In this document: positions 1,574-24,011 of the stretch, in pieces
How the letters are laid out: each line of letters opens with the position of its first letter
Position numbering within the stretch: position 1 is the stretch's first letter
IMG/VR virus record: IMGVR_UViG_2744054854_000003
Location: 1-24,011 of that record
Reading direction: 5' to 3' (one strand)
From: a virus
Taxonomy: Duplodnaviria > Heunggongvirae > Uroviricota > Caudoviricetes
DNA: 24,011 bases
The notes under the pieces: model-generated
The model's input: only the letters and a program-made list of their open reading frames with translations
Database searches by the model: none
What the model was told of the DNA's origin: nothing
Program-made: the position numbers and the translations under genes

Positions 1574-2097
1574 CGGTCAATGGGGCCATCGACTGGCTGA
1601 ACCGCGCTTCTTATTTTTTCACACTTGATCCATCGCCAGACAATATGCGGCGCGTTGGTCGTGGCCGCCGTCGCCGTGGTGTTTGTTATTGCATGGCACT
1701 ACCCGATGTTAAAGAACGTGAAGTCAGAGATGGCGTTCTGTGCTTCCGTCGTGTGGCTGAACGCGGCACAGAGCCAAAAAATACGAATTCTCCCGAGTGG
1801 TGGGCGTGGCGCTGGTCCGCACATTTCGGCCTTTGCGAAGATGAGAATGAAATTTCCAGCGGCAATAGTGCATATGGTGCTCTGAACCTGGCTTTCCATA
1901 TCGGATTCAAACATGTAGCCCTTGTGGGCGTTGACGCTACGCAAGAACTACGCGTTCACTCCGGCGGCACGCCAAAAAATCTAAGTCACCTGCCTTTGTT
2001 ATTCCAGTCTGCGCGTGAACAGATTGACGTTGTTTCATGCGGGAAAATGGGAGGTATTCCGCAGATGACTCTTAAAGAATGGCTGAAGAATACATGA
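1471..2097 (+). CDS. Hypothetical protein, paralogue B of the tandem pair, with an Arg/Gly-rich insert
   Basis: ATG 1471 preceded by AGGAG with about 11 nt spacing. Motifs [18 protein letters not shown] are present, with an extra 34-residue stretch ([12 protein letters not shown]...) relative to paralogue A. Overlaps the end of paralogue A by 103 nt in a different frame. Confidence 0.5.
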
Positions 2098-2771
2098 TGG
2101 CACCCACAATTTATCACCGTATCGACGGTACCAAATACAGGAATGTCTGGGTTGTTGGTGATCTGCATGGTTGCTACACCAGACTGATGTCCGAACTCCA
2201 TCGTGTGGATTTTGACCCGGCGCAGGATTTACTGATATCGGTCGGCGACCTTATCGATCGCGGTACTGAAAATGTCGAATGTCTGGAACTATTGCAGATG
2301 CCCTGGTTCAGGGCAGTGATGGGGAACCATGAGCGGCTGATGATTGATGCGTTAAGTCCAGATGGCAACGTGAATAACTGGCTAATGAATGGCGGACAAT
2401 GGTTCTTCATGCTGGACACTGATCAGGAAATATTAGCCTGGGCGCTGGTGGAGCTGGTAAAGCGTCTGCCCTATATCATTGAGTTGAACACCGGGCAAGA
2501 AACTATCGTTATAGCCCATGCCGACTATCCGGATAATGAATACCAATTCGGTAAGGAGGTGCCGCTTTTCAACGTTGTCTGGGCGCGCGAGCGTATCAGT
2601 GATTCGATGGATGATATTGGTGGCGAAATTTCGGGCGCAGATCGTTTTATCTTTGGTCACACTCCGGTGAAAAGCCCGAAGACATTCTGGAATCAGCAGT
2701 ATATCGACACTGGTGCCGTATTTTGCGGAAACCTGACATTGATGAAAGTGAAAGGTGATGGTGCAGCATGA
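2094..2771 (+). CDS. ppp: Ser/Thr protein phosphatase, lambda-PPase-like metallophosphoesterase
   Basis: GDLHGC, GDLIDRG, GNHE and GHTP motifs, and strong resemblance to lambda phosphatase as I remember it ([15 protein letters not shown]...). Start 2094 taken as an ATGA overlap with the upstream stop; the track start is 2079. The symbol is by analogy to P1 ppp. Confidence 0.85.
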
Positions 2772-3469
2772 AGATTGCTTTAGTTTTTCGCTCTGGTGGT
2801 GACTATAACGCTTCCGATGTGCAGTGGCTGGTTAATCAACTGCCAAAAGGCTATGAAATTATTTGCCTGACAGACCTGAAGCGTTTACATGTACCTGGCG
2901 TCAAAGTTGTCCCATTGATCAACCAGTGGCAAAAGTGCCGTGGCTGGTGGGCGAAAATCGAGTTGTTCCGACCGGATATAACAGATGATCTGTTCTATCT
3001 GGATTTGGACACAGTTATTGCCGGTGATATACGCCCAATCCTTGAGAATCCACCAACCAGCTTCACCATGCTTAGGGATTTTTACCATCCACAATATCGT
3101 GGTAGCGGTGCCCTGTGGATACCAAATAGTGTAAAAGCGCATATCTGGAGTTCATTCTGGCAAGATCCGGAAGGTTGGATTTCTCGTTGTGTCACTACTG
3201 AGTGCTGGGGTGATCAGGGGTTCTTACGGAAGGTTATGGGCGATGATACACCAGCATTTCAGGATCTGTATCCAGGATGGTTTGTAAGTTACAAGGCCGA
3301 TGTTGTGGAACCTGGTTCAAAATATGCGAGCGCGCGTTACTCCAGGGGGAATGGGGCATTACCAAAGGACTGCCGAATAATCTTTTTCCACGGCAAACCG
3401 CGACCTCGCGAAGTGTCAGAGGATTGGCTTCCCCTTATTAGCTCGTTTTTTGAGCGAGAATCAGAATAA
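2768..3469 (+). CDS. Hypothetical protein (pmgQ position), possible glycosyltransferase-like DxD motif
   Basis: 233-aa ORF whose ATG overlaps the ppp stop (ATGA). Contains YLDLDTVI, reminiscent of a nucleotide-sugar transferase DxD motif; this is weak evidence. Confidence 0.55.
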
Positions 3470-3470
3470 T

Positions 3471-3536
3471 ATTGCTCTAATAATTCCATATTTTTAAAAC
3501 GTGATGTACACTCATCACGTTTTTTATTAGAGCAAT
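3471..3536. promoter_or_regulatory. Two inverted C1 operator matches flanking a hairpin
   Basis: ATTGCTCTAATAATTCC at 3471-3487 on the plus strand, and ATTGCTCTAATAAAAAA on the minus strand at 3520-3536. Between them sits a hairpin (AAAACGTGATG / CATCACGTTTT, 3496-3523) followed by a T-run. Confidence 0.6.
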
Positions 3537-5876: not shown

Positions 5877-8800
5877 CTATATTTTTCCGCCTACGCCTTT
5901 AAACTTCTCAATAAACGAGACGATTTTCTGGAAAACTGCCTGTTTTTTCGTTTTATATTGCGGATTCAACGGACTAAGTTTTGGTAATGTTTCGTTTAAT
6001 TCTGTGCCATTTTCGGTGGCGTATTCGCGTTTTAAAGACGTGCGAATATAGCGTTTTGCTGCATCTTCATTGAGATTTTCTTCTTTTATCAATGCTTCTG
6101 CTTCACGTTGCTGTTCGCGTTGAGCAAACGTAAAGAATGCCTCAATGATACTGGCTTTGTCTGGTAAATCATCCAGGTTCGTTTGCTGAATAAAATCGAC
6201 CACCAGGCCCTCTTTCGCCCGGTTCCCCAGGCTTGAACGAATTAAGCGTTTGACCTCTTCGATCATTTCGCCCTTGCCTTTATTTTGTCTGTTGTGTTCG
6301 AAAATCAGTCCAAGGATATAATCCAGGTTTATTTCCTGAGACTTCAGCAAATCGACCTCAAAAACCACGTCATCCCAGTCAGTGGTTGATTTTTCTTTTT
6401 TATCAGCTTCTTTCTCGCGGCGCTGCCAGTCGCGAATATCGTTATAGGCAGAACGATAATCCTGAATCTTGCGATCAGCAGGGAGACGAATTGTTTGCAA
6501 TTCAGCGAACTTTTCATCATCCACATAATGTTCTGCTTTGAATTTTTCTACCGCAACAGGATCGCTAAGATCGATTTGTTGCAGGGCTTTTAGCGTGGCA
6601 AATTCATCATAGTTTTGCAGGATGTTCTCGGCACGCAGGTATTCGCCAAACAGTTTAACGAAGTCTTTCTTCTCTTTTTCACTTTCAATACTGGTAGGGT
6701 CAGGGAACCGTTGTTCCAGTTCTGAAACTACTGTCATGAAGCCGCGTTTAGCTTCACCAGTAGCAGCATCAGTAAAGCCTTCCATATACTCTGTATAACT
6801 CTTTTCTAACACCACATTTTTGGTGTTTTTGTCACCAAACAGCGTTATGGCATCAATAGTTGAGCGTTCCAGATCCCGGAAAGTGACGATATTACCGAAG
6901 GTTTTAGTTGCATCATAAATACGGTTGGTGCGGGAAAATGCCTGCATCAGGCCGTGAAAACGCAAGTTTTTATCGACGAATAGCGTGTTCAATGTTGGAG
7001 CATCGAAGCCGGTTAAAAACATCCCCACGACAATTAGCAGATCGATATCCTGATTTTTAACCCGCTGGGCTAAATCACGATAGTAGTTCTGAAAACCGTT
7101 ACTGTCGGTGCTGAAGTTAGTTTTAAAATGGCTGTTATATTCACGAATTGCAGCGTCCAGAAACTCTTTAGCACTGCTGTCCATTGCGCTGGTATCAAAA
7201 GTTTCATCGGAAATTTCACCAATGGCATTTTGTTCTTCATTAGCGGCAAAGGAGAAGATTGTCGCAACACGCAGCGGTTTATAGGTAGCCGATTTATTAG
7301 CGGCTTCCTCTTGTAACCGTTTAAACGTCGCATAATAGGCTTTTGCAGCATCCACGCTGCTTACTGCCAACATAGCATTAAAACCTTTTGAGCCAGGGAA
7401 GGTACGGTGGGTTTTCTGGCGGAAATTATTCAGAATATATTGCGTGATTTCCTGAATACGCATGGGATGAAGAAACGCCTGCTGATTTTCAGCCGCACTT
7501 AGTTTTTTCTCGTCAGTTTCTGTCTCTAAAGACTTAAACTGTGGCCGCACATCGTTGTAGTCCACCTTGAATTTGAGCACTTTTTCGTCACGAATCGCAT
7601 CGGTAATTACATACGAATGCAATTCACGACCAAATACGCTGGCGGTTGTTTCTGAGCCTAAGGCGTTTTCCGGGAAAATAGGGGTGCCGGTAAAACCAAA
7701 CTGATAATAGCGTTTGAATTTCTTCTTCAGGTTTTTCTGCGCTTCTCCAAACTGGCTGCGGTGGCATTCATCAAATATAAACACCACTTGCTGATTATAT
7801 ACAGGCAGGTCGCTTTCTGCTTTCATCAGGTTATTGAGTTTCTGAATAGTAGTGACGATAATTTTGTTATCGTCCTTATCCAGATTTCGTTTAAGGCCTG
7901 CGGTATTTTCCGAGCCGTTGACGCTGTCTGGCGAAAAACGCTGATATTCCTTCATGGTCTGGTAATCGAGGTCTTTCCTGTCGACCACAAAGAAGACTTT
8001 ATCAATAAAGTCCAGCTCTGTTGCCAGACGCGCGGCTTTAAAGCTGGTGAGGGTTTTACCAGAACCGGTAGTGTGCCAGATATACCCACCGCTTTCCGGT
8101 TTTGACCAGTTCTTCGCTGTAAAGGAACTCTTAATTTTCCACAGAATGCGCTCGGTGGCAGCAATCTGGTACGGTCGCATCACCAGTAGTGTCTGACTAC
8201 TGTCAAACACGCTGTAGTTCACCAGAACATTCAGCAGAGTATGTTTCTGGAAAAAGGTGGCGGTAAAGTCTTTGAGGTCTTTAATCAGCGTGTTGTCTGA
8301 TTTCGCCCAGTTCATGGTGAAGTCAAAACTGTTTTTATCGCGCTTTGTCGTGTTGGCAAAATAACGGGTATCGGTGCCGTTGGAAATGACGAACAGCTGC
8401 AGATACTTAAACAGGGAATTTTCGCTGTTAAAACTCTCTTTACTGTAACGATGTATCTGGTTGAAAGCCTCACGAATCGCCACCCCGCGTTTTTTTAGTT
8501 CGATTTGCACCAGCGGTAAACCATTAACCAGGATCGTGACGTCATAACGGTTAGCATGAGAACCCGTCTGTTCAAACTGCTGGATAATCTGCACCTTATT
8601 GCGCATGAGATTCTTTTTATCTATCAAATAGATGTTCTCAAGTCGCCCGTCGTCAAAAATAAAGTCGCAGATATAGTCGATATGGATTTTACGGGTTTTA
8701 TCCAGAATACCATCGCTGGGGTTGTCCAGATACTGCTCCGTGAAGCGCCGCCACTCGCTGTCATTAAACATCACACCATTGAGGCTCTGAAGCTGTTCCC

Positions 8801-8993
8801 GAACATTGGACAGCATTGCCGACTGTGATTTTACGGAAATAAATTCATAACCCTGATTCCGCAGGTCCTGAATCAGTTCACGTTCCAGGTCCGATTCGCT
8901 CTGGTAGCTGTCGCTTGTTTGCTCAGCTTTGATGTACTTATCAAGGACGATAAAGTTATTGGATTCAGCAATGGTGTGTGTTTGATGAGTCAT
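5877..8993 (-). CDS. hsdR: Type I restriction enzyme R subunit (1038 aa)
   Basis: Walker A ([12 protein letters not shown]) and DEAD-type box ([12 protein letters not shown]) helicase motifs. The length matches EcoR124I HsdR as I recall it. Has its own upstream intergenic region of 121 bp. Confidence 0.9.
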
Positions 8994-9114
8994 AGCGCAT
9001 CCTTTGTGCCGCCTGGCAAGAGCCGGAAGGGCGTTAAGAGTGACTTCCGGCGCGTAAAAAATAGTCTATATACTGACCGGGTGTTAAGGTGGCCCGATCG
9101 GTAGCAATGGTCAA

Positions 9115-10317
9115 TTAATTACTGACAGTTTCAGGTTTCGGGAAACTGAAAAGTAAATCACGGTAGTATTCGTATTGTTTCTGGCGCAACTCGATTTCAC
9201 GCGGAAGGCCTTCGGTGATGGAGTTTGTCAGGTTGTAAAATTTATCCATCGTGGCGACGATATAAAGTTGTTCATCGTATGATGGGATAGGTATTTCAAA
9301 TGCTCTCAACGATTTTAAACCTAAGTTTTTAATAGTTGAACCTGTTTTTTGATTTTCAAAATACTGTTTTGCGTAATTGGTTTGCAGGAAATAGAAAAGA
9401 TATCTAGTGTGGAGTTCAGGTGATTTAATTTTAAAATAGGCCACAGACTTACCGAGTACGATCTTCTCATTATTGTAAAAGGAAACATTTCCAATTGTGC
9501 CATTAATTGACAGGAAAACAGTATTTATTGGGTCAAAATGAATTCCGTGTTTTTTAAACATAGAATCATTAACCTTTTTTGTGTTATCGTTAAATGATAT
9601 TTTTTGATAGCCTAAATTGTTTCCATTGATAAAGAAATAATCACCGTTGGCGTCATATTCTGGAGTACCATGCAAACCGTCTCCAATTACACATAGCTCT
9701 CCTAATTTCAGACGTTTAACATCGTGGGCACCAAAACTAAATAACCGGTCGCGATAGTAGTTGTACTGTTTTTTACGCATGTTAAGCTCAGCGGTAAGCT
9801 CAGCGGTAAGTGCAGTAAATTTGTCCAGAATCCGAACGATTTCAGACTGGATGGCAAGGGATTTTTCCGGATTATCCGGGCAGGGGATTGGTACAGGTAT
9901 CTCAATTAATTGTCCTTTAGTTAATTTTGCCCTTCCTCCCCCGGTAAGGAAGGGAAGGAAATTAACGATGCATAAATAATGATATAGAAATCTAGAATGA
10001 ACTCTTTCTTTTCCTCGTACGACATGAACATGGTTGTTTGCCCAGAATTTACCAGTTGCATATTGAATTGAATAATTTTCTAAACTAGCCGAGCCATCTT
10101 CTGCAATTAAGACATATTCACCATCGTGGGTATATCCATCCACATAGTCTTGAATGTTGTTAGCACCATAATAGGGCGTCTCGCCTGCAATGCGCAAAGA
10201 GGCTTTTACTGGCTTTCTTCCATTATTCGCTATTTCGAAGAGTGAAGTATCACCAAGATTTCTCCACTCAACTTCAACCCCATCCAGCAATTTTTCCAGA
10301 TAACTTAACTCGCTCAT
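9115..10317 (-). CDS. hsdS: Type I R-M specificity subunit (400 aa), type IC-like
   Basis: Central conserved region with a TAELTAEL repeat, and the duplicated YYRD(R/L)LFSF motif at mid-protein and C-terminus, as in EcoR124-family HsdS. Its start overlaps the hsdM stop. Confidence 0.9.
9784..9816 (-). repeat. 12-bp tandem repeat (2 copies plus a degenerate third) encoding TAEL-TAEL in hsdS
   Basis: AAGCTCAGCGGT occurs twice (9784-9795 and 9796-9807), followed by AAGTGCAGT. The minus-strand translation is [11 protein letters not shown]. Confidence 0.85.
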
Positions 10318-11876
10318 TTCTGCACCTCGCAGCCTTCAATTTCAGCCACAATCGCATCAATATCTTTACGCAACAGGTCGATTTTGCTGACCGTGGTTTT
10401 CAGCTCTGCGTTCAACTCAGCAATATCGATAATTTCGCGGTTATCTTTCGCTTCCACATAGCTGCTCACCGACAGGTTATAGTCATTAGCGACAACGGTC
10501 TCAAACGCGACAGATTTCGCCAGATGAGCAACATCTTCCTTGCTGGCAAATACCTGCATAATCTGTTCGATATGGGCATCGGTCAGGGTATTGTTGTTAG
10601 TTTCTTTTTTAAACAGCTCGCTGGCATCAATAAACTGAACTTTGGTATCCGTTTTATGTTTAGACAGCACCAGAATGTTTACGGCAATAGTGGTGCCAAA
10701 GAACAGATTCGGTGCCAGTGAAATCACGGTTTCGACATAGTTATTGTCGACCAGATACTGACGGATTTTCTGCTCTGCGCCGCCACGGTAAAAAATACCC
10801 GGGAAGCAGACAATCGCAGCACGACCTTTGGCAGAAAGATAGTTCAGCGCATGTAGTACAAAGGCGAAGTCAGCTTTTGATTTGGGGGCCAGAACGCCAG
10901 CAGGGGCAAAACGTTCATCGTTAATCAGCGTCGGGTCATCACTGCCAATCCATTTCACCGAATATGGCGGGTTAGAAACGATGGCATCAAACGGTTTTTC
11001 ATCTCTGAAGTGCGGCTCAGTCAGCGTATTGCCCAGCTTGATATCAAACTTGTCGTAGTTGATGTTGTGCAAAAACATGTTCATACGCGCCAGGTTATAG
11101 GTCGTATGGTTGATCTCCTGACCAAAAAAGCCTTCTTCGATGATATGGTCATCAAACTGCTTTTTCGCCTGTAACAACAGCGAACCGGAACCTGCGGCTG
11201 GGTCGTAGATTTTGTTAACGTGGGTCTGCCCGTGCATAGCCAGTTGTGCAATCAGCTTAGAGACATGCTGCGGTGTAAAAAACTCGCCGCCTGACTTACC
11301 AGCATTCGCCGCATAGTTAGAAATCAGGAACTCATAGGCATCGCCGAACAGGTCAATCTGATGTTCGTTGAAGTCACCAAGTTTTAACCCTTCAACCCCT
11401 TTCAGAACCGCAGCCAGGCGGGCATTTTTATCCTTAACGGTGTTACCCAGGCGGTTACTGGTGGTATCGAAATCAGCAAACAAACCTTTGATGTCAGCTT
11501 CTGAAGGGTAACCGTAAGCAGAACTTTCGATAGCAACGAAGATACTGTTTAAATCTGCATTCAGTCTGTCATTGGTATTTGCTTTCGCAGCTACGTTGCA
11601 GAAAAGCTGACTTGGGTAGATGAAGTAGCCTTTAGTTTTGATGGCATCGTCTTTAATGTCATCAGTAATTACGCTGTCATCCAGTTTCGCATAACAGATA
11701 CTGTCATCACCGGCTTCAATATAGCTGGAAAAATTTTCGCTGATAAAACGGTAGAAAAGTGCGCCCAGAACGTATTGCTTAAAATCCCATCCATCGACCG
11801 AACCCCTGACATCGTTAGCAATTTGCCAGATTTGACGATGAAGCTCTGCACGTTGTTGAATACTTGTCATTTTCAT
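10314..11876 (-). CDS. hsdM: Type I R-M N6-adenine DNA methyltransferase subunit (520 aa)
   Basis: NPPY motif (SNPPYSVKW), AdoMet-binding glycine-rich motif ([10 protein letters not shown]), and a typical HsdM N-terminus. The length matches EcoR124I HsdM as recalled. Confidence 0.9.
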
Positions 11877-12052: not shown

Positions 12053-12274
12053 ATGCAATCCATTAACTTCCGTACCGCGCGCGGCAACCTTTCTGAAGTG
12101 CTCAACAATGTTGAAGCCGGGGAAGAGGTTGAAATCACCCGCAGAGGCCGTGAGCCAGCAGTAATTGTCAGCAAGGCTACTTTCGAAGCCTACAAAAAAG
12201 CGGCGCTGGATGCTGAATTTGCATCCCTGTTTGACACCCTGGACTCCACCAACAAGGAACTGGTTAACCGATAA
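12053..12274 (+). CDS. phd: Antitoxin Phd (73 aa)
   Basis: [56 protein letters not shown]... recognised as P1 Phd. Its stop overlaps the doc start (TAATGA). Confidence 0.9.
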
Positions 12275-12654
12275 TGAGGCATATATCACCGGAAGAACTT
12301 ATTGCGCTTCATGATGCGAATATAAGCCGCTACGGCGGCCTGCCGGGAATGTCAGATCCGGGCAGGGCAGAGGCCATTATCGGGAGAGTCCAGGCCAGAG
12401 TTGTGTACGAAGAGATCACCGACCTTTTCGAAGTCTCCGCCACCTACCTGGTGGCTACTGCGAGAGGGCATATATTCAATGATGCCAATAAGCGTACCGC
12501 GCTAAACAGTGCGCTGTTATTTCTACGCCGTAACGGGGTGCAGGTATTTGATTCACCTGAACTGGCAGACCTTACTGTAGGCGCTGCGACTGGCGAGATA
12601 TCTGTATCTTCTGTCGCCGACACGTTACGTAGATTGTATGGTTCTGCGGAGTAG
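12274..12654 (+). CDS. doc: Toxin Doc (126 aa), Fic-fold kinase
   Basis: Fic motif HIFNDANKR is present. Length and position immediately after phd match P1 doc. Confidence 0.9.
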
Positions 12655-14535: not shown

Positions 14536-15729
14536 GTGACCTGGGACGATCACAAGAAGAATTTTGCTCGCCTGGCGCGAGATGGTGGTTACACCATCGC
14601 ACAGTATGCCGCCGAGTTTAATCTTAACCCTAATACCGCACGTCGTTATCTCCGTGCCTTCAAAGAAGACACCAGGACTGCGGACAGCCGCAAGCCAAAT
14701 AAGCCAGTCAGGAAGCCACTAAAAAGCATGATCATTGATCACTCTAATGATCAACATGCAGGTGATCATATTGCGGCTGAAATAGCGGAAAAACAGAGAG
14801 TTAATGCCGTTGTCAGTGCCGCAGTCGAGAATGCGAAGCGCCAAAATAAGCGCATAAATGATCGTTCGGATGATCATGACGTGATCAACCGCGCCCACCG
14901 GACCTTACGTGATCGCCTGGAACGCGACACCCTGGATGATGATGGTGAACGCTTTGAATTCGAAGCTGGCGATTACCTGATAGATAACGTTGAAGCGCGG
15001 AAGGCCGCGCGCGCTATGTTGCGTCGGTCCGGGGCCGATGTTCTGGAAACCACTCTTCTTGAAAAGTCTCTTTCTCATCTCCTTATGCTGGAGAACGCCA
15101 TGGATACGTGTATTCGCCTGGTGCAGGAAATGCGCGATCAGCAAAAAGACGATGATGAAGGTACTCCGCCTGAATACCGTATCGCGAGCATGCTAAACAG
15201 CTGTTCCGCGCAGATAAGCAGTCTGATCAACACCATTTACAGCATCCGGAATAACTATCGAAAAGAAAGCCGGGAGGCGGAAAAGCACGCTTTGTCTATG
15301 GGGCAAGCTGGCATTGTTAAGCTGGCATACGAACGAAAGCGTGAAAATAACTGGTCAGTGCTGGAAGCAGCTGAATTCATCGAGGCGCATGGCGGGAAAG
15401 TGCCGCCCCTGATGCTGGAGCAAATCAAAGCAGATCTGCGTGCTCCTAAGACAAATACCGATGATGAGGAAAGGCAAACTGCCGTCGGTGGCCCTTCTCT
15501 TGAAGATCTGGACAAAGTTGCGCGAGAACGGGCCGCCAACCGCCGCGCCGATGCTGCATTGTGGATTGAGCAACGTAGGGAAGAAATCGCCGATATCGTT
15601 GATACAGGCGGTTATGGAGATGTTGATACTGAAGGTGTATCAAACGAACCATGGCTGGAACAAGACCTGGACGAAGACGAGGAGGAAGACGAAGAAGTTA
15701 CCCGCAAGCTATACGGGGATGATGATTAA
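14536..15729 (+). CDS. pacA: Terminase small subunit PacA (397 aa), contains the pac site
   Basis: GTG start with AAAGGAAG upstream. 397 aa as in P1 PacA. The GATC-hexamer pac site lies inside it, and the acidic C-terminal tail overlaps the pacB start. Confidence 0.85.
14729..14887 (+). other. pac packaging site: two clusters of GATC hexamers (4 plus 3)
   Basis: GATC at 14730, 14737, 14749 and 14764 (left cluster) and at 14860, 14872 and 14883 (right cluster), each mostly within a TGATCA/G hexamer. This matches the known 4+3 architecture of the P1 pac site. Confidence 0.85.
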
Positions 15730-17213
15730 TGGCCAGAAGTTGCGTAACGGATCCACGTTGGCGCGAGCTGGTGGCGCTATATCGTTATGACTGGATTGCG
15801 GCCGCTGATGTTTTGTTCGGCAAAACACCTACCTGGCAGCAGGATCTGATTATTGAGTCTGTGCAGGAACAGGGTAGCAAGACATCTGTTTCGTCTGGCC
15901 ACGGTACCGGGAAATCAGACATGACTTCTATCATGATCATGTTGTTCATAATCATGTATCCCGGTGCCCGAGCCATTATCGTTGCGAACAAAATTCAGCA
16001 GGTAATGACCGGTATATTCAAGTACATCAAGATAAACTGGGCTACTGCCACCAGCCGTTTTCCATGGCTTGCTGATTATTTTGTTCTGACAGAAACCGCT
16101 TTCTATGAGGTTACTGGTAAAGGTGTATGGACTGTAGTACCGAAGGGCTTTCGTCTGGGAAGTGAAGAAGCTCTCGCCGGTGAACACGCAGATCATCTTC
16201 TGTATATTATCGATGAAGCCTCCGGTGTCAGTGATAGAGCTTTCGGTATCATCACCGGTGCTCTTACCGGACAGGATAACCGCATCTTATTGCTGTCACA
16301 GCCTACACGCCCAAGCGGCTATTTCTACGATACACACCATAAACTGGCCAAGCGTCCTGGTAACCCTGATGGCGTTTATACGGCGATCACGCTTAACAGT
16401 GAGGAATCACCGTTGGTAACGCCAGCATTTATCAAAATGAAGCTGGCGGAGTACGGCGGGCGTGATAACCCTATGTACATGATTAAGGTACGCGGCCTAT
16501 TCCCTAAATCACAGGATGGCTTCCTTCTTGGACGTGATGAGGTTGAACGTGCAACGCGGCGGAAAGTCAAGATTGCAAAAGGATGGGGCTGGCTTGCATG
16601 TGTGGACGTTGCTGGTGGTACGGGACGGGATAAGTCCGTTATCAATATCATGATGGTGTCCGGCCAGCGAAATAAACGCCGTGTAATCAACTATCGAATG
16701 CTGGAATACACAGACGTTACAGAAACGCAGCTTGCCGCCAAAATTTTCGCAGAATGTAATCCTGAGCGATTCCCAAATATCACCATAGCGATAGACGGCG
16801 ATGGCCTGGGTAAAGCAACGGCGGATCTGATGTACGAGTATTATGGTATTACCGTACAGCGCATACGCTGGGGTAAAAAGATGCATAGCCGTGAAGATAA
16901 GAGCCTGTACTTTGATAAACGTGCTTATGCCAACGTTCAAGCCGCAGAGGCCGTAAAATCTGGTCGTATGAGACTGGATAAGGGTAATGAAACTATTGAG
17001 GAAGCGTCGAAAATCCCTGTAGGGATTAACTCCGCAGGTCAATGGAAGGTGATGAGTAAGGAGGATATGAAGAAAAAACTCAACCTGCACTCACCAGACC
17101 ATTGGGATACATATTGTTTCGCTATGCTGGCGGATTATGTTCCCCAGGATGAAGTGCTTAGCGTCGAAGACGAAGCGCAGGTTGATGAAGCTCTGGCATG
17201 GCTTAATGAGTAA
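15729..17213 (+). CDS. pacB: Terminase large subunit PacB (494 aa)
   Basis: 494 aa, with its start overlapping the pacA stop (TAATG). Size and position match P1 PacB. Confidence 0.85.
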
Positions 17214-17219
17214 AAAAAA

Positions 17220-17236
17220 CTTGCTCTAATAAATTG
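17220..17236 (+). promoter_or_regulatory. C1 operator at the start of the antirepressor module
   Basis: CTTGCTCTAATAAATTG, 15 of 17 matches. It is followed by TTGACT at 17244-17249. Confidence 0.6.
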
Positions 17237-17366
17237 CGTTTTTTGACTGCCGATGTTACATTGAACCTGACCTCTTGCGCCTTGAGGCATTTTCGGTTTA
17301 TGCTTATCAGGCACCTCATTAAAACGGGTGCCGGGATTGGCCTCCCGCTTAAGTCTAAGGCGATAC

Positions 17367-17389
17367 AGACGCCGCTCGCGTCTTTTTTT
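17367..17389 (+). terminator. Intrinsic terminator or attenuator hairpin with a 7-T run
   Basis: Stem AGACGC / GCGTCT with a 5-nt loop, followed by TTTTTTT (17383-17389). Lies in the leader between the operator and the 74-aa gene. Confidence 0.5.
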
Positions 17390-17554
17390 GTATCGGCGTA
17401 CACGCACACCTCTACAATGGTGGGCTGTATGGGGCTACCTTCGGGTAGGCTGGTTACCTTGGACGCCAGTAAGGCCAACTCCGTACAGTCCACCGCCAGC
17501 AAGATTGGTCTCTTCTGCGGTGGTTACATACCAACGTCTAAGGAGGCTGCCATT

Positions 17555-17776
17555 ATGGCTACTATCCCTACCCCAACTCATCCTGAATTTATCTGGCGCT
17601 TTTACTCCTGCCAGAAACGTCACTATCACTTCGTTATCGCAACAACAGAAGATGAGGCACGTTCTCAGCTTCCGGATGCTCCCTGCATTTTCTCCGCACG
17701 CTTTTCTACTGACTCGCGCAATTCTCTCAGTTACTGGTGCCTCCCTGTTAACGCTTCTGTTCAGGAGGGGCTATGA
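17555..17776 (+). CDS. Small protein (74 aa) translationally coupled to the antirepressor gene (icd-like position)
   Basis: Strong SD AAGGAGG 8 nt upstream of ATG 17555. Its stop overlaps the ATG at 17773 (ATGA). An in-frame upstream ATG at 17418 is possible. Confidence 0.5.
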   Translation: MATIPTPTHPEFIWRFYSCQKRHYHFVIATTEDEARSQLPDAPCIFSARFSTDSRNSLSYWCLPVNASVQEGL

Positions 17777-18885
17777 GAACGTCATTAGTCACCCGTGAAG
17801 AGATGATCGAGGCAATTGAACCGCACACAATCTGTATCAGCACCAGGGATATTCCCGGTGTTATAGCCAATTACTTCATGATCACCAAACAACTCTACAG
17901 GAGAAAGGACAAGAACGCGGTTCACCGTATCCTGCTGTCTGATATCCGCGAATACCTGCTCGAACAGGGGCATCTGAATTACGCAACCGTCGCAGCCGAA
18001 ACACGCAAGGAGGCACACAGAATGAAAGCTACTAACGTTAAATCAGAAAAAGTTCATGCACCTTCAGTTCAGGAATCAGAGCTGGTGGTTGTTCAAAATC
18101 AGCCTGATGAAATTCCCGTTCTGGAATGGCAGGGAGTACGCGTCGTAACGACCGAAACTCTTGCTAAGGGGTATGGAACCGAAACTAATAACATCAAAGT
18201 TAACTATACGCGTAATGCTGATCGCTTTGAGGAAGGTAAACATTACTTTCTACTAACTGGTTCAAAATTAAGAGAATTGAAGGACAAGGTTACTCAAAGT
18301 AACTTAGTCGCACCGCGAGCAAAGCACCTCACTCTCTGGACGGAGCGTGGCGCAGCCCGCCACGCTAAAATGCTCGAAACCGATCAGGCATGGGCATTCT
18401 TTGAAAAACTGGAAGACAGCTACTTCCGGCAAAAAGAACAGCAACCGGTTGCAATCCCCCAGACGCTTCCAGAAGCTCTGCGCCTGGCTGCCGAGTTGGC
18501 TGAACAAAAGCAGCTACTGGAACAGAAGGCCCACCAGCTAAATCAACAACTGGTGGCCGCAGCCCCCAAGGTCGATTTTGCCGACCGGGTATCAGTAGCT
18601 AAAGGGATCCTGATTGGGAATTTTGCAAAGGTTGTTGGACTTAAGCAAAACGCGCTGTTTGCCTGGTTACGGGAGAACGGCATCCTGATTGCGTCCGGCG
18701 GACGTAAAAATGTGCCGTTCCAGCAGTACATCACCGCGGGGTATTTCACGGTGAAAGAAGTGGTGCTGGATGATGAAGATGGCTACCAGATACGGTTGAC
18801 GCCTCAATTAACGGGTAAAGGCCAGCAGTGGTTAACTCGCAAGCTACTTGATGCTGGCTTGTTAAAACCGGTGGCGGCTGAATAA
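17773..18885 (+). CDS. ant: Antirepressor-like protein (ORF6N-like and ANT/KilAC-like domains), nested in-frame starts giving 370 aa and 287 aa
   Basis: Middle region RNADRFEEGKHYFLL resembles ORF6N. C-terminal LFAWLRENGILIASGG...YITAGYFTVKE resembles the phage antirepressor ANT domain. A second in-frame ATG at 18022 has a strong SD (AAGGAGG). The symbol is tentative. Confidence 0.65.
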   Translation: MRTSLVTREEMIEAIEPHTICISTRDIPGVIANYFMITKQLYRRKDKNAVHRILLSDIREYLLEQGHLNYATVAAETRKEAHRMKATNVKSEKVHAPSVQESELVVVQNQPDEIPVLEWQGVRVVTTETLAKGYGTETNNIKVNYTRNADRFEEGKHYFLLTGSKLRELKDKVTQSNLVAPRAKHLTLWTERGAARHAKMLETDQAWAFFEKLEDSYFRQKEQQPVAIPQTLPEALRLAAELAEQKQLLEQKAHQLNQQLVAAAPKVDFADRVSVAKGILIGNFAKVVGLKQNALFAWLRENGILIASGGRKNVPFQQYITAGYFTVKEVVLDDEDGYQIRLTPQLTGKGQQWLTRKLLDAGLLKPVAAE

Positions 18886-18917
18886 TGGAAGAATGCCCGG
18901 TTGATGCCGGGCATAAT

Positions 18918-19769
18918 TTATTGCGCGCTTTCGGGGTTGTCGTTTACTGGCTGCCCCTTCTTGGTTTTACGGCTGCGCGTAACTGATGCGGCTGACTTAA
19001 CCTTTTTCTCTTCGCGAGTGATGGCAATTTGTTTTTTTACATTTTCAATATCTGCCAGGCGATATATTTTTGCTTGCGGCCAGCGGTCGCAGATGATCGG
19101 TTCTATGGAGTCATAAAGGCTAAATTTTGCTTTTTCGAATTCACCGTTGATGATAATTCCATCACGGAGAGTTTCATCGCAGATAAACACGCCACACAGT
19201 GGCACATGGTAACTAACTGATTTACCATCATTGTAGTTAGGGCTACTGGAAATGTAGTGGACGCGCAGCATTGTTTCGCTAAAGCCGTGTACGCGCATAC
19301 GGAATTTTTCATCCTCCGGGTACTGCTTCATTAGCTCTTTTGTTGCTTCCAGGTTCTCTATGTATTTCGCACTGTGCTCATTGATCCCCGCGCTTTTTTG
19401 GATGCGAATGTCCTTATCAATCAGATGAATAATGCGGCCAGCGGTCATGTTGACGCTGTTCACAGCTTCTGTCTGATAAGTTGTAACCTTGCGAACACCG
19501 CGAAGGATGTTAGGCACTGGATATAAAATAGTCTTTGGGATATTGAGGTCTGGGTACTGTTCCAGTTCCCGCGCCATTAAAGTCCATTTATCAATTTCAG
19601 CCTGAATGCTGTCAGTTTCTTTGAACGGTAGAACGACAACCGGGCGTACAGGACGACCGTCGCTGGCTGTATCAACGTGTTGGGCGCGTGCAACAGCTTT
19701 TTTTAGAAAGAGATCCCTGAAGCTGACGAACTCCTGGTACAGTTGTTCGCCGTAGACATAATTTATCAT
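18918..19769 (-). CDS. c1: C1 repressor of lysogeny (283 aa)
   Basis: MINYVYGEQLYQEFVSFRDLFLKKAVARAQHV... recognised as P1 C1; 283 aa. Convergent with pacB and the antirepressor gene. Confidence 0.9.
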   Translation of the reverse strand: MINYVYGEQLYQEFVSFRDLFLKKAVARAQHVDTASDGRPVRPVVVLPFKETDSIQAEIDKWTLMARELEQYPDLNIPKTILYPVPNILRGVRKVTTYQTEAVNSVNMTAGRIIHLIDKDIRIQKSAGINEHSAKYIENLEATKELMKQYPEDEKFRMRVHGFSETMLRVHYISSSPNYNDGKSVSYHVPLCGVFICDETLRDGIIINGEFEKAKFSLYDSIEPIICDRWPQAKIYRLADIENVKKQIAITREEKKVKSAASVTRSRKTKKGQPVNDNPESAQ

Positions 19770-19863: not shown

Positions 19864-19880
19864 AGATTTATTAGTGCATT
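19864..19880 (-). promoter_or_regulatory. C1 operator-like site between coi and c1 (Op99-type autoregulatory region)
   Basis: Minus-strand reading AATGCACTAATAAATCT, about 14 of 17 matches, with the same TTAGTGCAT variant as the site at 753-769. Confidence 0.45.
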
Positions 19881-20089
19881 TATTGTGAGTCTAACTGGTT
19901 AGTTGCCATGAGATATTCGATTGTGTCAGTGAGGTCATCCAGGTCGTCTTGGGTGATGCGGTACTCCTGATTGGATATCTTTGAGTAGTGTTCAGCAATG
20001 GCGCGGGCAGCGTCGGTTTCGGCAGGGTCTACAGATAAAGCGTTAGAGCAATGTCTAACGTCGTCGATGGTTGGTTGAATGAAAGCCAT
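19880..20089 (-). CDS. coi: C1 inactivator Coi (69 aa)
   Basis: 69-aa ORF immediately upstream of c1 on the same strand. Size and position match P1 coi. Confidence 0.8.
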   Translation of the reverse strand: MAFIQPTIDDVRHCSNALSVDPAETDAARAIAEHYSKISNQEYRITQDDLDDLTDTIEYLMATNQLDSQ

Positions 20090-20470: not shown

Positions 20471-20504
20471 ATAACTTCGTATAGCATACATTATACGAAG
20501 TTAT
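20471..20504 (-). other. loxP recombination site (34 bp)
   Basis: ATAACTTCGTATA-GCATACAT-TATACGAAGTTAT: perfect 13-bp inverted repeats around an 8-bp spacer that is the reverse complement of the usual ATGTATGC, so the canonical orientation is on the minus strand. Confidence 0.97.
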
Positions 20505-23933: not shown

Positions 23934-24011
23934 ATACAACACTCAGTTAGTAACGTCGGAATCTTCATTCTCAGAATGACCCTTTCTCCAGCCCGCTGCA
24001 AATTCAGACGG

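Follow-up and report, generated by a model that had tools for sequence, protein, structure and literature searches.

A probable second immI-type antirepressor operon between pacB and c1 in P1-like phage-plasmids

The 24,011-nucleotide (nt) stretch of IMG/VR virus record IMGVR_UViG_2744054854_000003 (hereafter the window) comes from a P1-like phage-plasmid. Part of it runs in the order pacA, pacB, module, c1, coi, loxP, cra, and cre. The module is the subject of this work. A preliminary description, made from the sequence without database searches, had proposed that a look-alike of the P1 immI region, home of the antirepressor operon c4-icd-ant1/ant2, stands here between pacB and the repressor gene c1, at a place where P1 has pacB directly followed by convergent c1. 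The P1 reference bears this out. Only 24 base pairs (bp), CTCATTAACCATGCCGGATGGAAA, separate the end of pacB from the end of c1 in P1, which carries none of the module genes there, and since this gap is so short the module is extra relative to P1. The flanks of the inserted segment align to P1 pacB (102/107 nt) and to the 3' end of c1, and a 1704-bp segment identical to that of the window is found in six independent, unrelated draft assemblies. As can be seen in Table 1, the segment holds a C1 operator-like site, two promoter candidates, paired RNA sites (a1/b1 and a2/b2) around a C4 antisense RNA, an icd-like gene, and coupled nested ant1/ant2 genes, so that the label "immI-like module" originally given to it is apt.

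Table 1. Features of the module and of its surroundings in the window
Feature	Position	Strand	Details
pacA	14536-15729		
pacB	15729-17213		
Inserted segment	17214-18917	+	1704 bp, exactly in place of the 24-bp pacB-c1 spacer of P1
C1 operator-like site	17220-17236	+	CTTGCTCTAATAAATTG; 2 mismatches, both at end positions, to the 17-bp consensus ATTGCTCTAATAAATTT
Upstream promoter candidate	17234-17262	+	-35 TTGCGT (17234-17239), 17-nt spacer, -10 TACATT (17257-17262)
Downstream promoter candidate	17275-17304	+	-35 TTGCGC (17275-17280), 18-nt spacer, -10 TATGCT (17299-17304)
isrK-type leader RNA	17311-17388	+	Rfam RF01394, 60.8 bits (gathering score 50), E 5.6e-11
Decoy site a1	17336-17342	+	ATTGGCC; in a hairpin loop of the isrK-type element
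Decoy site b1	17353-17360	+	GTCTAAGG; inside the isrK-type element
Intrinsic terminator	17367-17389	+	Hairpin AGACGCCGCTCGCGTCT then T7, between a1/b1 and C4; terminator scan and isrK 3' hairpin
C4 antisense RNA	17413-17500	+	Rfam RF01695, 75.9 bits (gathering score 45), E 1.8e-13
C4 loop b'	17457-17464	+	CCTTGGAC
C4 loop a'	17473-17479	+	GGCCAAC
Target site a2	17504-17510	+	ATTGGTC; in the icd leader, complementary to a'
Target site b2	17536-17543	+	GTCTAAGG; complementary to b', overlaps the icd Shine-Dalgarno sequence AAGGAGG (17540-17546)
icd-like gene	17555-17776	+	73 amino acids (aa) plus stop; AAGGAGG at 17540-17546, 8 nt before the ATG
ant1-like gene	17773-18885	+	370 aa, 42.0 kDa
ant2-like nested product	18022-18885	+	In frame, 287 aa, 32.2 kDa; own Shine-Dalgarno sequence AAGGAGG (18007-18013) 8 nt upstream
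GC-rich hairpin	18893-18914		ATGCCCGG-TTGATG-CCGGGCAT, within the insertion between convergent ant and c1; terminator scan, 9 pairs, 6 of them G-C; likely a terminator
c1 repressor gene	18918-19769	-	NCBIfam phage_rep_C1 equivalog, 611.6 bits
coi	19880-20089	-	
loxP	20471-20504		Exact 34-bp site

The operator-like site at the upstream end of the module, recognized as such in the preliminary description, belongs to a class of sites clearly enriched over chance, with nine sites of at most three mismatches found in the window versus 0.11 expected. It aligns with Oc4/Op51 of P1 and P7, and of 40 unique copies of the module nearly every one retains it. The other eight sites, which have one to three mismatches, lie at 3471, 3520, 5612, 13911, 19864, 20328, 20411, and 22443, and those flanking lox and preceding lpa and c1 coincide with the positions of annotated P1 operators. 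The upstream promoter candidate, whose -35 hexamer overlaps the operator-like site, corresponds in every alignment column to P2c4 (formerly P51a), an annotated P1 promoter with a -35 that overlaps Oc4. The downstream candidate, located 41 nt beyond, aligns with P1c4 (formerly P51b); neither of its hexamers varies among the 40 unique copies, and transcription from it is predicted to start at about 17311, where the isrK model begins.

The leader that separates the operator from the icd-like gene spans 318 nt (17237-17554), close to the roughly 300 nt first estimated, and it is indeed structured, since the fold of 17311-17560 has a z of -4.19 and two Rfam covariance models score above their gathering thresholds in it. 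The first match, to isrK, covers the full model (positions 1-77), including its 3' terminator hairpin, and contains the a1 and b1 sites, both of which match the C4 loops by base complementarity and change in step with them. In the canonical P1 and P7 leaders, a leader alignment reveals no intrinsic terminator between a1/b1 and C4. The T run of the terminator (17383-17389) varies from 6 to 9 in length among copies of the module. No match to the Rfam family c4-a1b1 (RF03163) is found in the window at the gathering score, although a1/b1 sites are nonetheless present in the isrK-type element. Because c4-a1b1 matches the canonical leaders of P1 (51 bits) and plasmid pE189-1 (55.5 bits) but not the module leader, while isrK scores just 35 bits on P1, we regard the module leader as the isrK flavor of the same functional element. 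The second match, C4, has the conserved fold: compensatory changes affect 12 of the 24 consensus pairs, and every pair of the long stem stays intact. Downstream of it, a2 and b2 have the same spacing to C4 and to the icd start as the a2/b2 sites of P1. When the unprocessed leader (17311-17560) is folded to minimum free energy, a1 pairs with a' and b1 with b' in cis, which resembles the inactive "structure A" described for isrK-orf45 of Salmonella Gifsy-1.

As for the genes, the small open reading frame (ORF) following the leader encodes 73 aa, not the 74 first reported, a figure that counts the stop codon, while the strong Shine-Dalgarno sequence and the ATGA coupling to the next gene described with it are both present. 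Its product is 82% identical to P1 Icd, matches NCBIfam NF033153 (phage_ICD_like; E 2.3e-13), and is 73 aa long in essentially all full copies. The ratio of nonsynonymous to synonymous substitution rates (dN/dS) of the gene is 0.05-0.11 against the copies in the relatives RCS47 and JL22. The icd stop and the ant1 start overlap as ATGA at 17773-17776, and this overlap and the context of the ant2 start (AAGGAGG-N8-ATG) are kept in nearly all copies that have that part of the module. The two in-frame ant starts and their product lengths are as originally predicted, and the offset between them, 249 nt, recurs unchanged in P1, P7, and RCS47. The sizes given there for P1 Ant1 and Ant2, 42 and 32 kDa, fit the module protein better than P1 itself, for which the calculated values are 38.7 and 29.0 kDa.

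Profile searches place the 370-aa protein (hereafter Ant) among antirepressor-family homologs, as the preliminary description had expected. It contains an ORF6N domain (residues 116-200, E 1.3e-20) and an ANT/KilAC domain (residues 258-359, E 1.7e-31) according to Pfam, and matches PHROG 63, "anti-repressor Ant," with an E value of 3.7e-134. Searches found no NCBIfam family for Ant and no solved relative of it in the PDB. Ant is 55% identical overall to P1 Ant1 (E 5e-126), with an uneven distribution along the protein, since the two are similar up to approximately residue 85 and near-identical from approximately residue 226, that is, over the last ~145 residues. The dN/dS of the ant1-like gene is 0.16 against JL22.

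To retrieve further copies, we used an exact 23-nt core of the leader, which identified 54 IMG/VR contigs and adjoins pacB, just downstream of it, in all 54. Pairing sites were scored in 56 copies, drawn from the window, from three reference phages, and from the IMG/VR loci of sufficient length (loci are given below by L numbers where they need to be told apart). This reveals three alleles of the a1/a'/a2 set (GGCC, GAGA, and GGAA) and three of the b1/b'/b2 set (GTCT, GTCA, and GCAA), which combine in six haplotypes and in which all three sites change together. The sole exception to the three-way match is the haplotype of a single copy (L036), in which a1 is mismatched. Such three-way compensatory changes argue for selection on pairing. 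The window carries GGCC and GTCT, the RCS47 module is of the GAGA and GTCA types, and that of JL22 is of the GAGA and GCAA types, both unlike the window. A further code, fully matched for a and b, is found in the Shiga toxin (Stx) phage GER2.

The pairing alleles also set the module apart from canonical immI. Its a'/b' loops read GGCCAAC/CCTTGGAC, in contrast to CTGTCAAC/CACTAAC in P1 and CTGCTAAC/CACAATC in P7. In RNAduplex calculations, cognate C4-target duplexes range from -23 to -29 kcal/mol, the window's own being -25.6 kcal/mol, whereas the module C4 against P1 or P7 targets yields -7.6 to -11.7 kcal/mol. Cross pairs between P1 and P7, which are heteroimmune, are stronger than the latter, at -17 to -19 kcal/mol. 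Since its code is unlike those of P1 and P7, the module would be regulated independently of canonical immI, and this would add a second immunity specificity.

Complete relatives indicate how the module stands to canonical immI. RCS47, JL22, vB_EcoM-673R5, and plasmid pE189-1 each have both a canonical c4-icd-ant1/2 operon adjoining kilA-repL and the pacB-c1 module. In pE189-1, which among complete relatives comes nearest to the window as a whole, the set by kilA-repL consists of c4-a1b1, C4, icd, and ant, and the set between pacB and c1 of isrK, C4, icd, and ant. The preliminary description had left open whether the immunity regions are fused in this element or whether it carries a second antirepressor circuit. 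Because all four complete relatives examined keep both modules, the second circuit is favored, and fusion of immI with immC (the c1-coi region) is rejected for this class of element.

The arrangement is widespread, and its presence is already on record. Over its full length, the window is matched at 96-97% identity by its nearest counterparts in PLSDB, and among complete E. coli genomes the module is matched at 94% identity at best. The module occurs in ~267 PLSDB plasmids and pacB in ~569 (these counts come from separate searches and were not cross-tabulated), and the module is also present in 249 of 5426 complete E. coli genomes. The exact window Ant protein is present in 98 blocks of the collection, and all six places listed lie between pacB and c1. 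The same insertion, with its "ant" gene and with 88-94% identity, stands at this site in RCS47 (NC_042128), JL22, vB_EcoM-673R5, and pTZ20_1P. Annotation of the module gene in relatives varies between ant (as in RCS47), Roi, and Icd, while PGAP labels the proteins Icd-like and KilAC and places an "ash family protein" on the leader. The insertion was already mentioned by Venturini et al. 2019 (PMC6906374). Published descriptions that we found are of gene content only; in this literature we found no description of the operator, RNAs, pairing alleles, or independence from canonical immI. The allelic antisense code and the multilocus organization thus appear not to have been described previously.

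Together, we consider it likely that the inserted segment is a self-contained second immI-type operon, paralogous to P1 c4-icd-ant1/ant2, inserted beside immC. The two share the order of their parts (Oc4/Op51, P51a, P51b, a1/b1, c4 RNA, a2/b2, icd, and ant1/ant2), an operator lying over the upstream -35, a second promoter, the C4 fold, and a b2 site over the icd Shine-Dalgarno sequence. They also have in common a 73-aa Icd, ATGA coupling, an ant2 start 249 nt inside ant1, and a KilAC C terminus. They differ in location, since the canonical operon has the sim genes on one side and kilA-repL on the other, which makes the pacB-c1 one a paralogous locus. In addition to its distinct a'/b' code, the module has an isrK-type leader with an intrinsic terminator between a1/b1 and C4, and an Ant that is 23 aa longer, with an ORF6N domain in its middle.

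The sequence itself displays the component parts, how they complement one another, and the selection that they are under, and the regulatory steps may be sketched by analogy with immI of P1 and P7, a mechanism reportedly established by Citron & Schuster (1990, 1992) and Heinrich et al. (1994, 1995). This mechanism is summarized in PMC8198154 and PMC8546580. In a lysogen, C1, presumed to be both the regulator acting at the module operator and the target of Ant, would shut the upstream promoter. Leader transcripts would open with the isrK-type element bearing a1/b1 and end at the intrinsic terminator, and read-through would yield C4. Once processed from leader transcripts, C4 would pair with a2/b2 and block translation of icd, and hence expression of ant. 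Should C4 be missing, titrated, or non-cognate, both Icd and Ant1/Ant2 would be produced, and Ant would inactivate C1. The terminator placed after a1/b1 should produce a short decoy RNA in excess over C4, as in Gifsy-1 IsrK, where the short IsrK RNA raises translation of the antirepressor more than 100-fold in trans (PMC4825925, Table 1). Because the upstream promoter would be under C1 control, we infer a positive feedback loop, in which a drop in C1 would lead to more decoy, titration of C4, release of ant, and further inactivation of C1.

Several points weigh against reading the segment as a second C1-directed immI. Neither promoter was called by a consensus promoter scan of the window, and for this reason the assignments rest on homology to annotated P1 promoters; C1 binding at 17220-17236 and promoter activity are likewise predictions. 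The a2 site of the window allele pairs by G-U wobble (ATTGGTC versus GGCCAA) and because of this is slightly weaker than decoy a1. Since the terminator lies upstream of C4, the supply of C4 depends on read-through, so that the scheme presupposes a leaky terminator of suitable efficiency as well as C4 processing. The canonical immI of the window's own replicon is presumed from the four complete relatives. Finally, the middle third of Ant, which holds the ORF6N domain, has no recognizable similarity to the middle of P1 Ant1, in which a Pfam search detects no ORF6N match and no domain. Because of this unlike middle domain, the target of Ant could differ from C1, and that Ant1/Ant2 bind and inactivate C1 is suggested by the conserved N- and C-terminal parts of the protein.

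The alternative that survives best, which we nevertheless view as rather unlikely, builds on this last point and holds that the module is controlled by C4 but that its Ant acts on another repressor or pathway, such as the repressor of a resident lambdoid prophage or an AntQ-type antiterminator route as for Gifsy-1 AnrP. Apart from the ORF6N domain, it finds support in the leader, which over 17312-17587 is ~81% identical to the isrK-type leaders of lambdoid and Stx prophages, and in the homologous Gifsy-1 locus, which works through antQ (PMC4825925). However, the operon is under a C1 operator-like site kept in nearly all copies, and the Ant1-specific N terminus, the nested ant2 start, and the nearly identical last ~145 residues are conserved with P1. 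Moreover, the Stx-phage version of the leader has a plain sigma-70 promoter and lacks a C1 operator, which argues that the P1-like version is wired specifically into the C1 regulon.

A second alternative, to which we give a somewhat lower probability, is that the module is the only immI of the window's replicon, the regions having been fused or relocated and the canonical c4-icd-ant by kilA-repL lost. The window is just 24 kb long, and every contig found with the exact module is a fragment of at most 57 kb. Canonical immI is known to be lost or disrupted in some P1-like elements (pJIE250-3, PMC6906374; mcr-1 in ant1, PMC5786510), and one recombinant (L036) joins a module leader to a P1-type ant followed by kilA. 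Against this stand the four complete relatives with both modules, the finding that nearly every plasmid among the matches listed has at least two matching places, and the fact that in the window it is c1, not kilA, that comes after the module.

That the module is a decaying, nonfunctional duplicate we consider highly improbable. A minority of copies are indeed truncated (Ant of 80, 254, 257, 340, or 344 aa) or carry an insertion sequence, but ORFs are intact in most copies, the dN/dS values lie between 0.05 and 0.16, the three-way compensatory changes in the RNA sites require selection on pairing, and the same 1704-bp allele recurs in six unrelated assemblies. Weakest of all, and hardly credible, is the notion that the leader encodes an "Ash family" protein instead of regulatory RNAs, for although an ORF (17234-17776, +), in frame with icd, matches Pfam Phage_ASH (PF10554; 44.8 bits versus a cutoff of 26) and is annotated as such by PGAP and other gene callers, the T run and other 1-nt indels shift the frame among otherwise near-identical copies, the variation obeys RNA pairing rules, and two covariance models match above their gathering scores. 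The length variation of the T run, with the frame shifts that it causes, and the covariation of the RNA sites argue against a protein-coding leader, a reading that we do not adopt. The upstream part of 17234-17776 is probably isrK/C4 RNA rather than protein, which casts doubt on the Phage_ASH family at such loci.

The module has relatives outside P1-like elements. Gifsy-1 isrK-orf45-anrP of Salmonella (PMC4825925) shares with it an isrK RNA with a leaky terminator, a downstream processed complementary RNA, and a small upstream ORF coupled by AUGA to the antirepressor. Both Gifsy-1 and GER2 differ from the module in having no C1 operator, a small ORF that is not icd, and, downstream, AnrP or a 216-aa "regulatory protein" instead of nested Ant1/Ant2, and the output of the Gifsy-1 locus is antQ induction. 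In Stx prophages, the leader stands before a 216-aa regulator and an antiterminator, the layout also seen in Gifsy-1 isrK-orf45-anrP. In GER2 (L062, 3470-3800), the isrK/C4-type leader, ~81% identical to that of the module, adjoins attR and is preceded by a promoter, TTGACT-17-TATATT, without a C1 operator. Its code consists of UUAGGAC for a, CCUUGAUUG for b', and CAAUCAAGG for b2, and the 216-aa protein has an Icd-like start, MATIP, and then diverges.

Recombination has also shaped the module itself. The window Ant is 99.7% identical to that of one other locus (L025), the leader of which has the code GAGA and GTCA, versus GGCC and GTCT in the window. Because near-identical Ants follow different codes, leader and ant must recombine, with a breakpoint between them. 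Four loci are rearrangements between paralogous modules. In L023, two tandem copies of the module lie 1566 bp apart, and in L057, a leader of the pacB-c1 type and a truncated icd are followed by canonical C4-icd-ant1. L036 has the pacB-c1 type of leader joined to a P1-type ant1 (93% identical), then kilA in place of c1, and L051 encodes a hybrid Ant that is 80% identical to P1 Ant1. In addition, three loci contain a third C4-icd-ant module just past cre, in opposite orientation (L008, ~9-1466; L022, ~1954-3411; L041, ~1423-2883), with a canonical-type C4, a new b' loop (CATGTAC), and an Ant 90-98% identical to the window Ant. No such module is present beyond cre in the window, up to position 24011. 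These third modules are probably the icd-ant1/2 homologs reported in RD-1 of pSvP1 (PMC6906374).

Elsewhere in the window, the type I restriction-modification genes hsdR (1038 aa), hsdS (400 aa), and hsdM (520 aa) adjoin phd-doc (5877-11876, on the minus strand, and ~12053-12654). P1 has no hsd genes beside phd-doc, and the P1 record likens its own phd-doc region to the sequence upstream of the EcoDXXI hsd locus.

Beyond this single locus, we tentatively propose, as a possibility that we do not hold to be the likelier outcome, that P1-like phage-plasmids have a multilocus combinatorial antisense-RNA immunity code, in which an isrK-type decoy under C1 control serves as a positive-feedback amplifier of C1 inactivation. 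If so, there would be at least five orthogonal C4 specificities at pacB-c1 alone, built from three a- and three b-alleles that would recombine freely with each other and with ant. The pacB-c1 locus would operate beside canonical immI and, in some elements, beside the third C4-icd-ant module by cre. In natural E. coli populations, the outcome when P1-like elements meet, whether superinfection, coexistence, or induction, would be set jointly by these loci.

E. coli and Salmonella often harbor P1-like phage-plasmids, which carry resistance genes such as SHV-2, CTX-M, and mcr-1, and the C1/Ant/C4 immunity system governs which phage-plasmid enters, coexists in, or induces an already occupied cell. 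Descriptions of this system to date come from P1 and P7, which have one immI each. Our finding connects the IsrK small RNA family of Salmonella with the decoy portion, a1/b1, of C4-type switches. It also suggests that about half of pacB-bearing PLSDB plasmids have a second operon that would be wired into C1 and regulated independently, with several pairing alleles. Natural immunity types therefore likely outnumber the P1/P7 dichotomy, and they may be readable from sequence as a'/b' loops.

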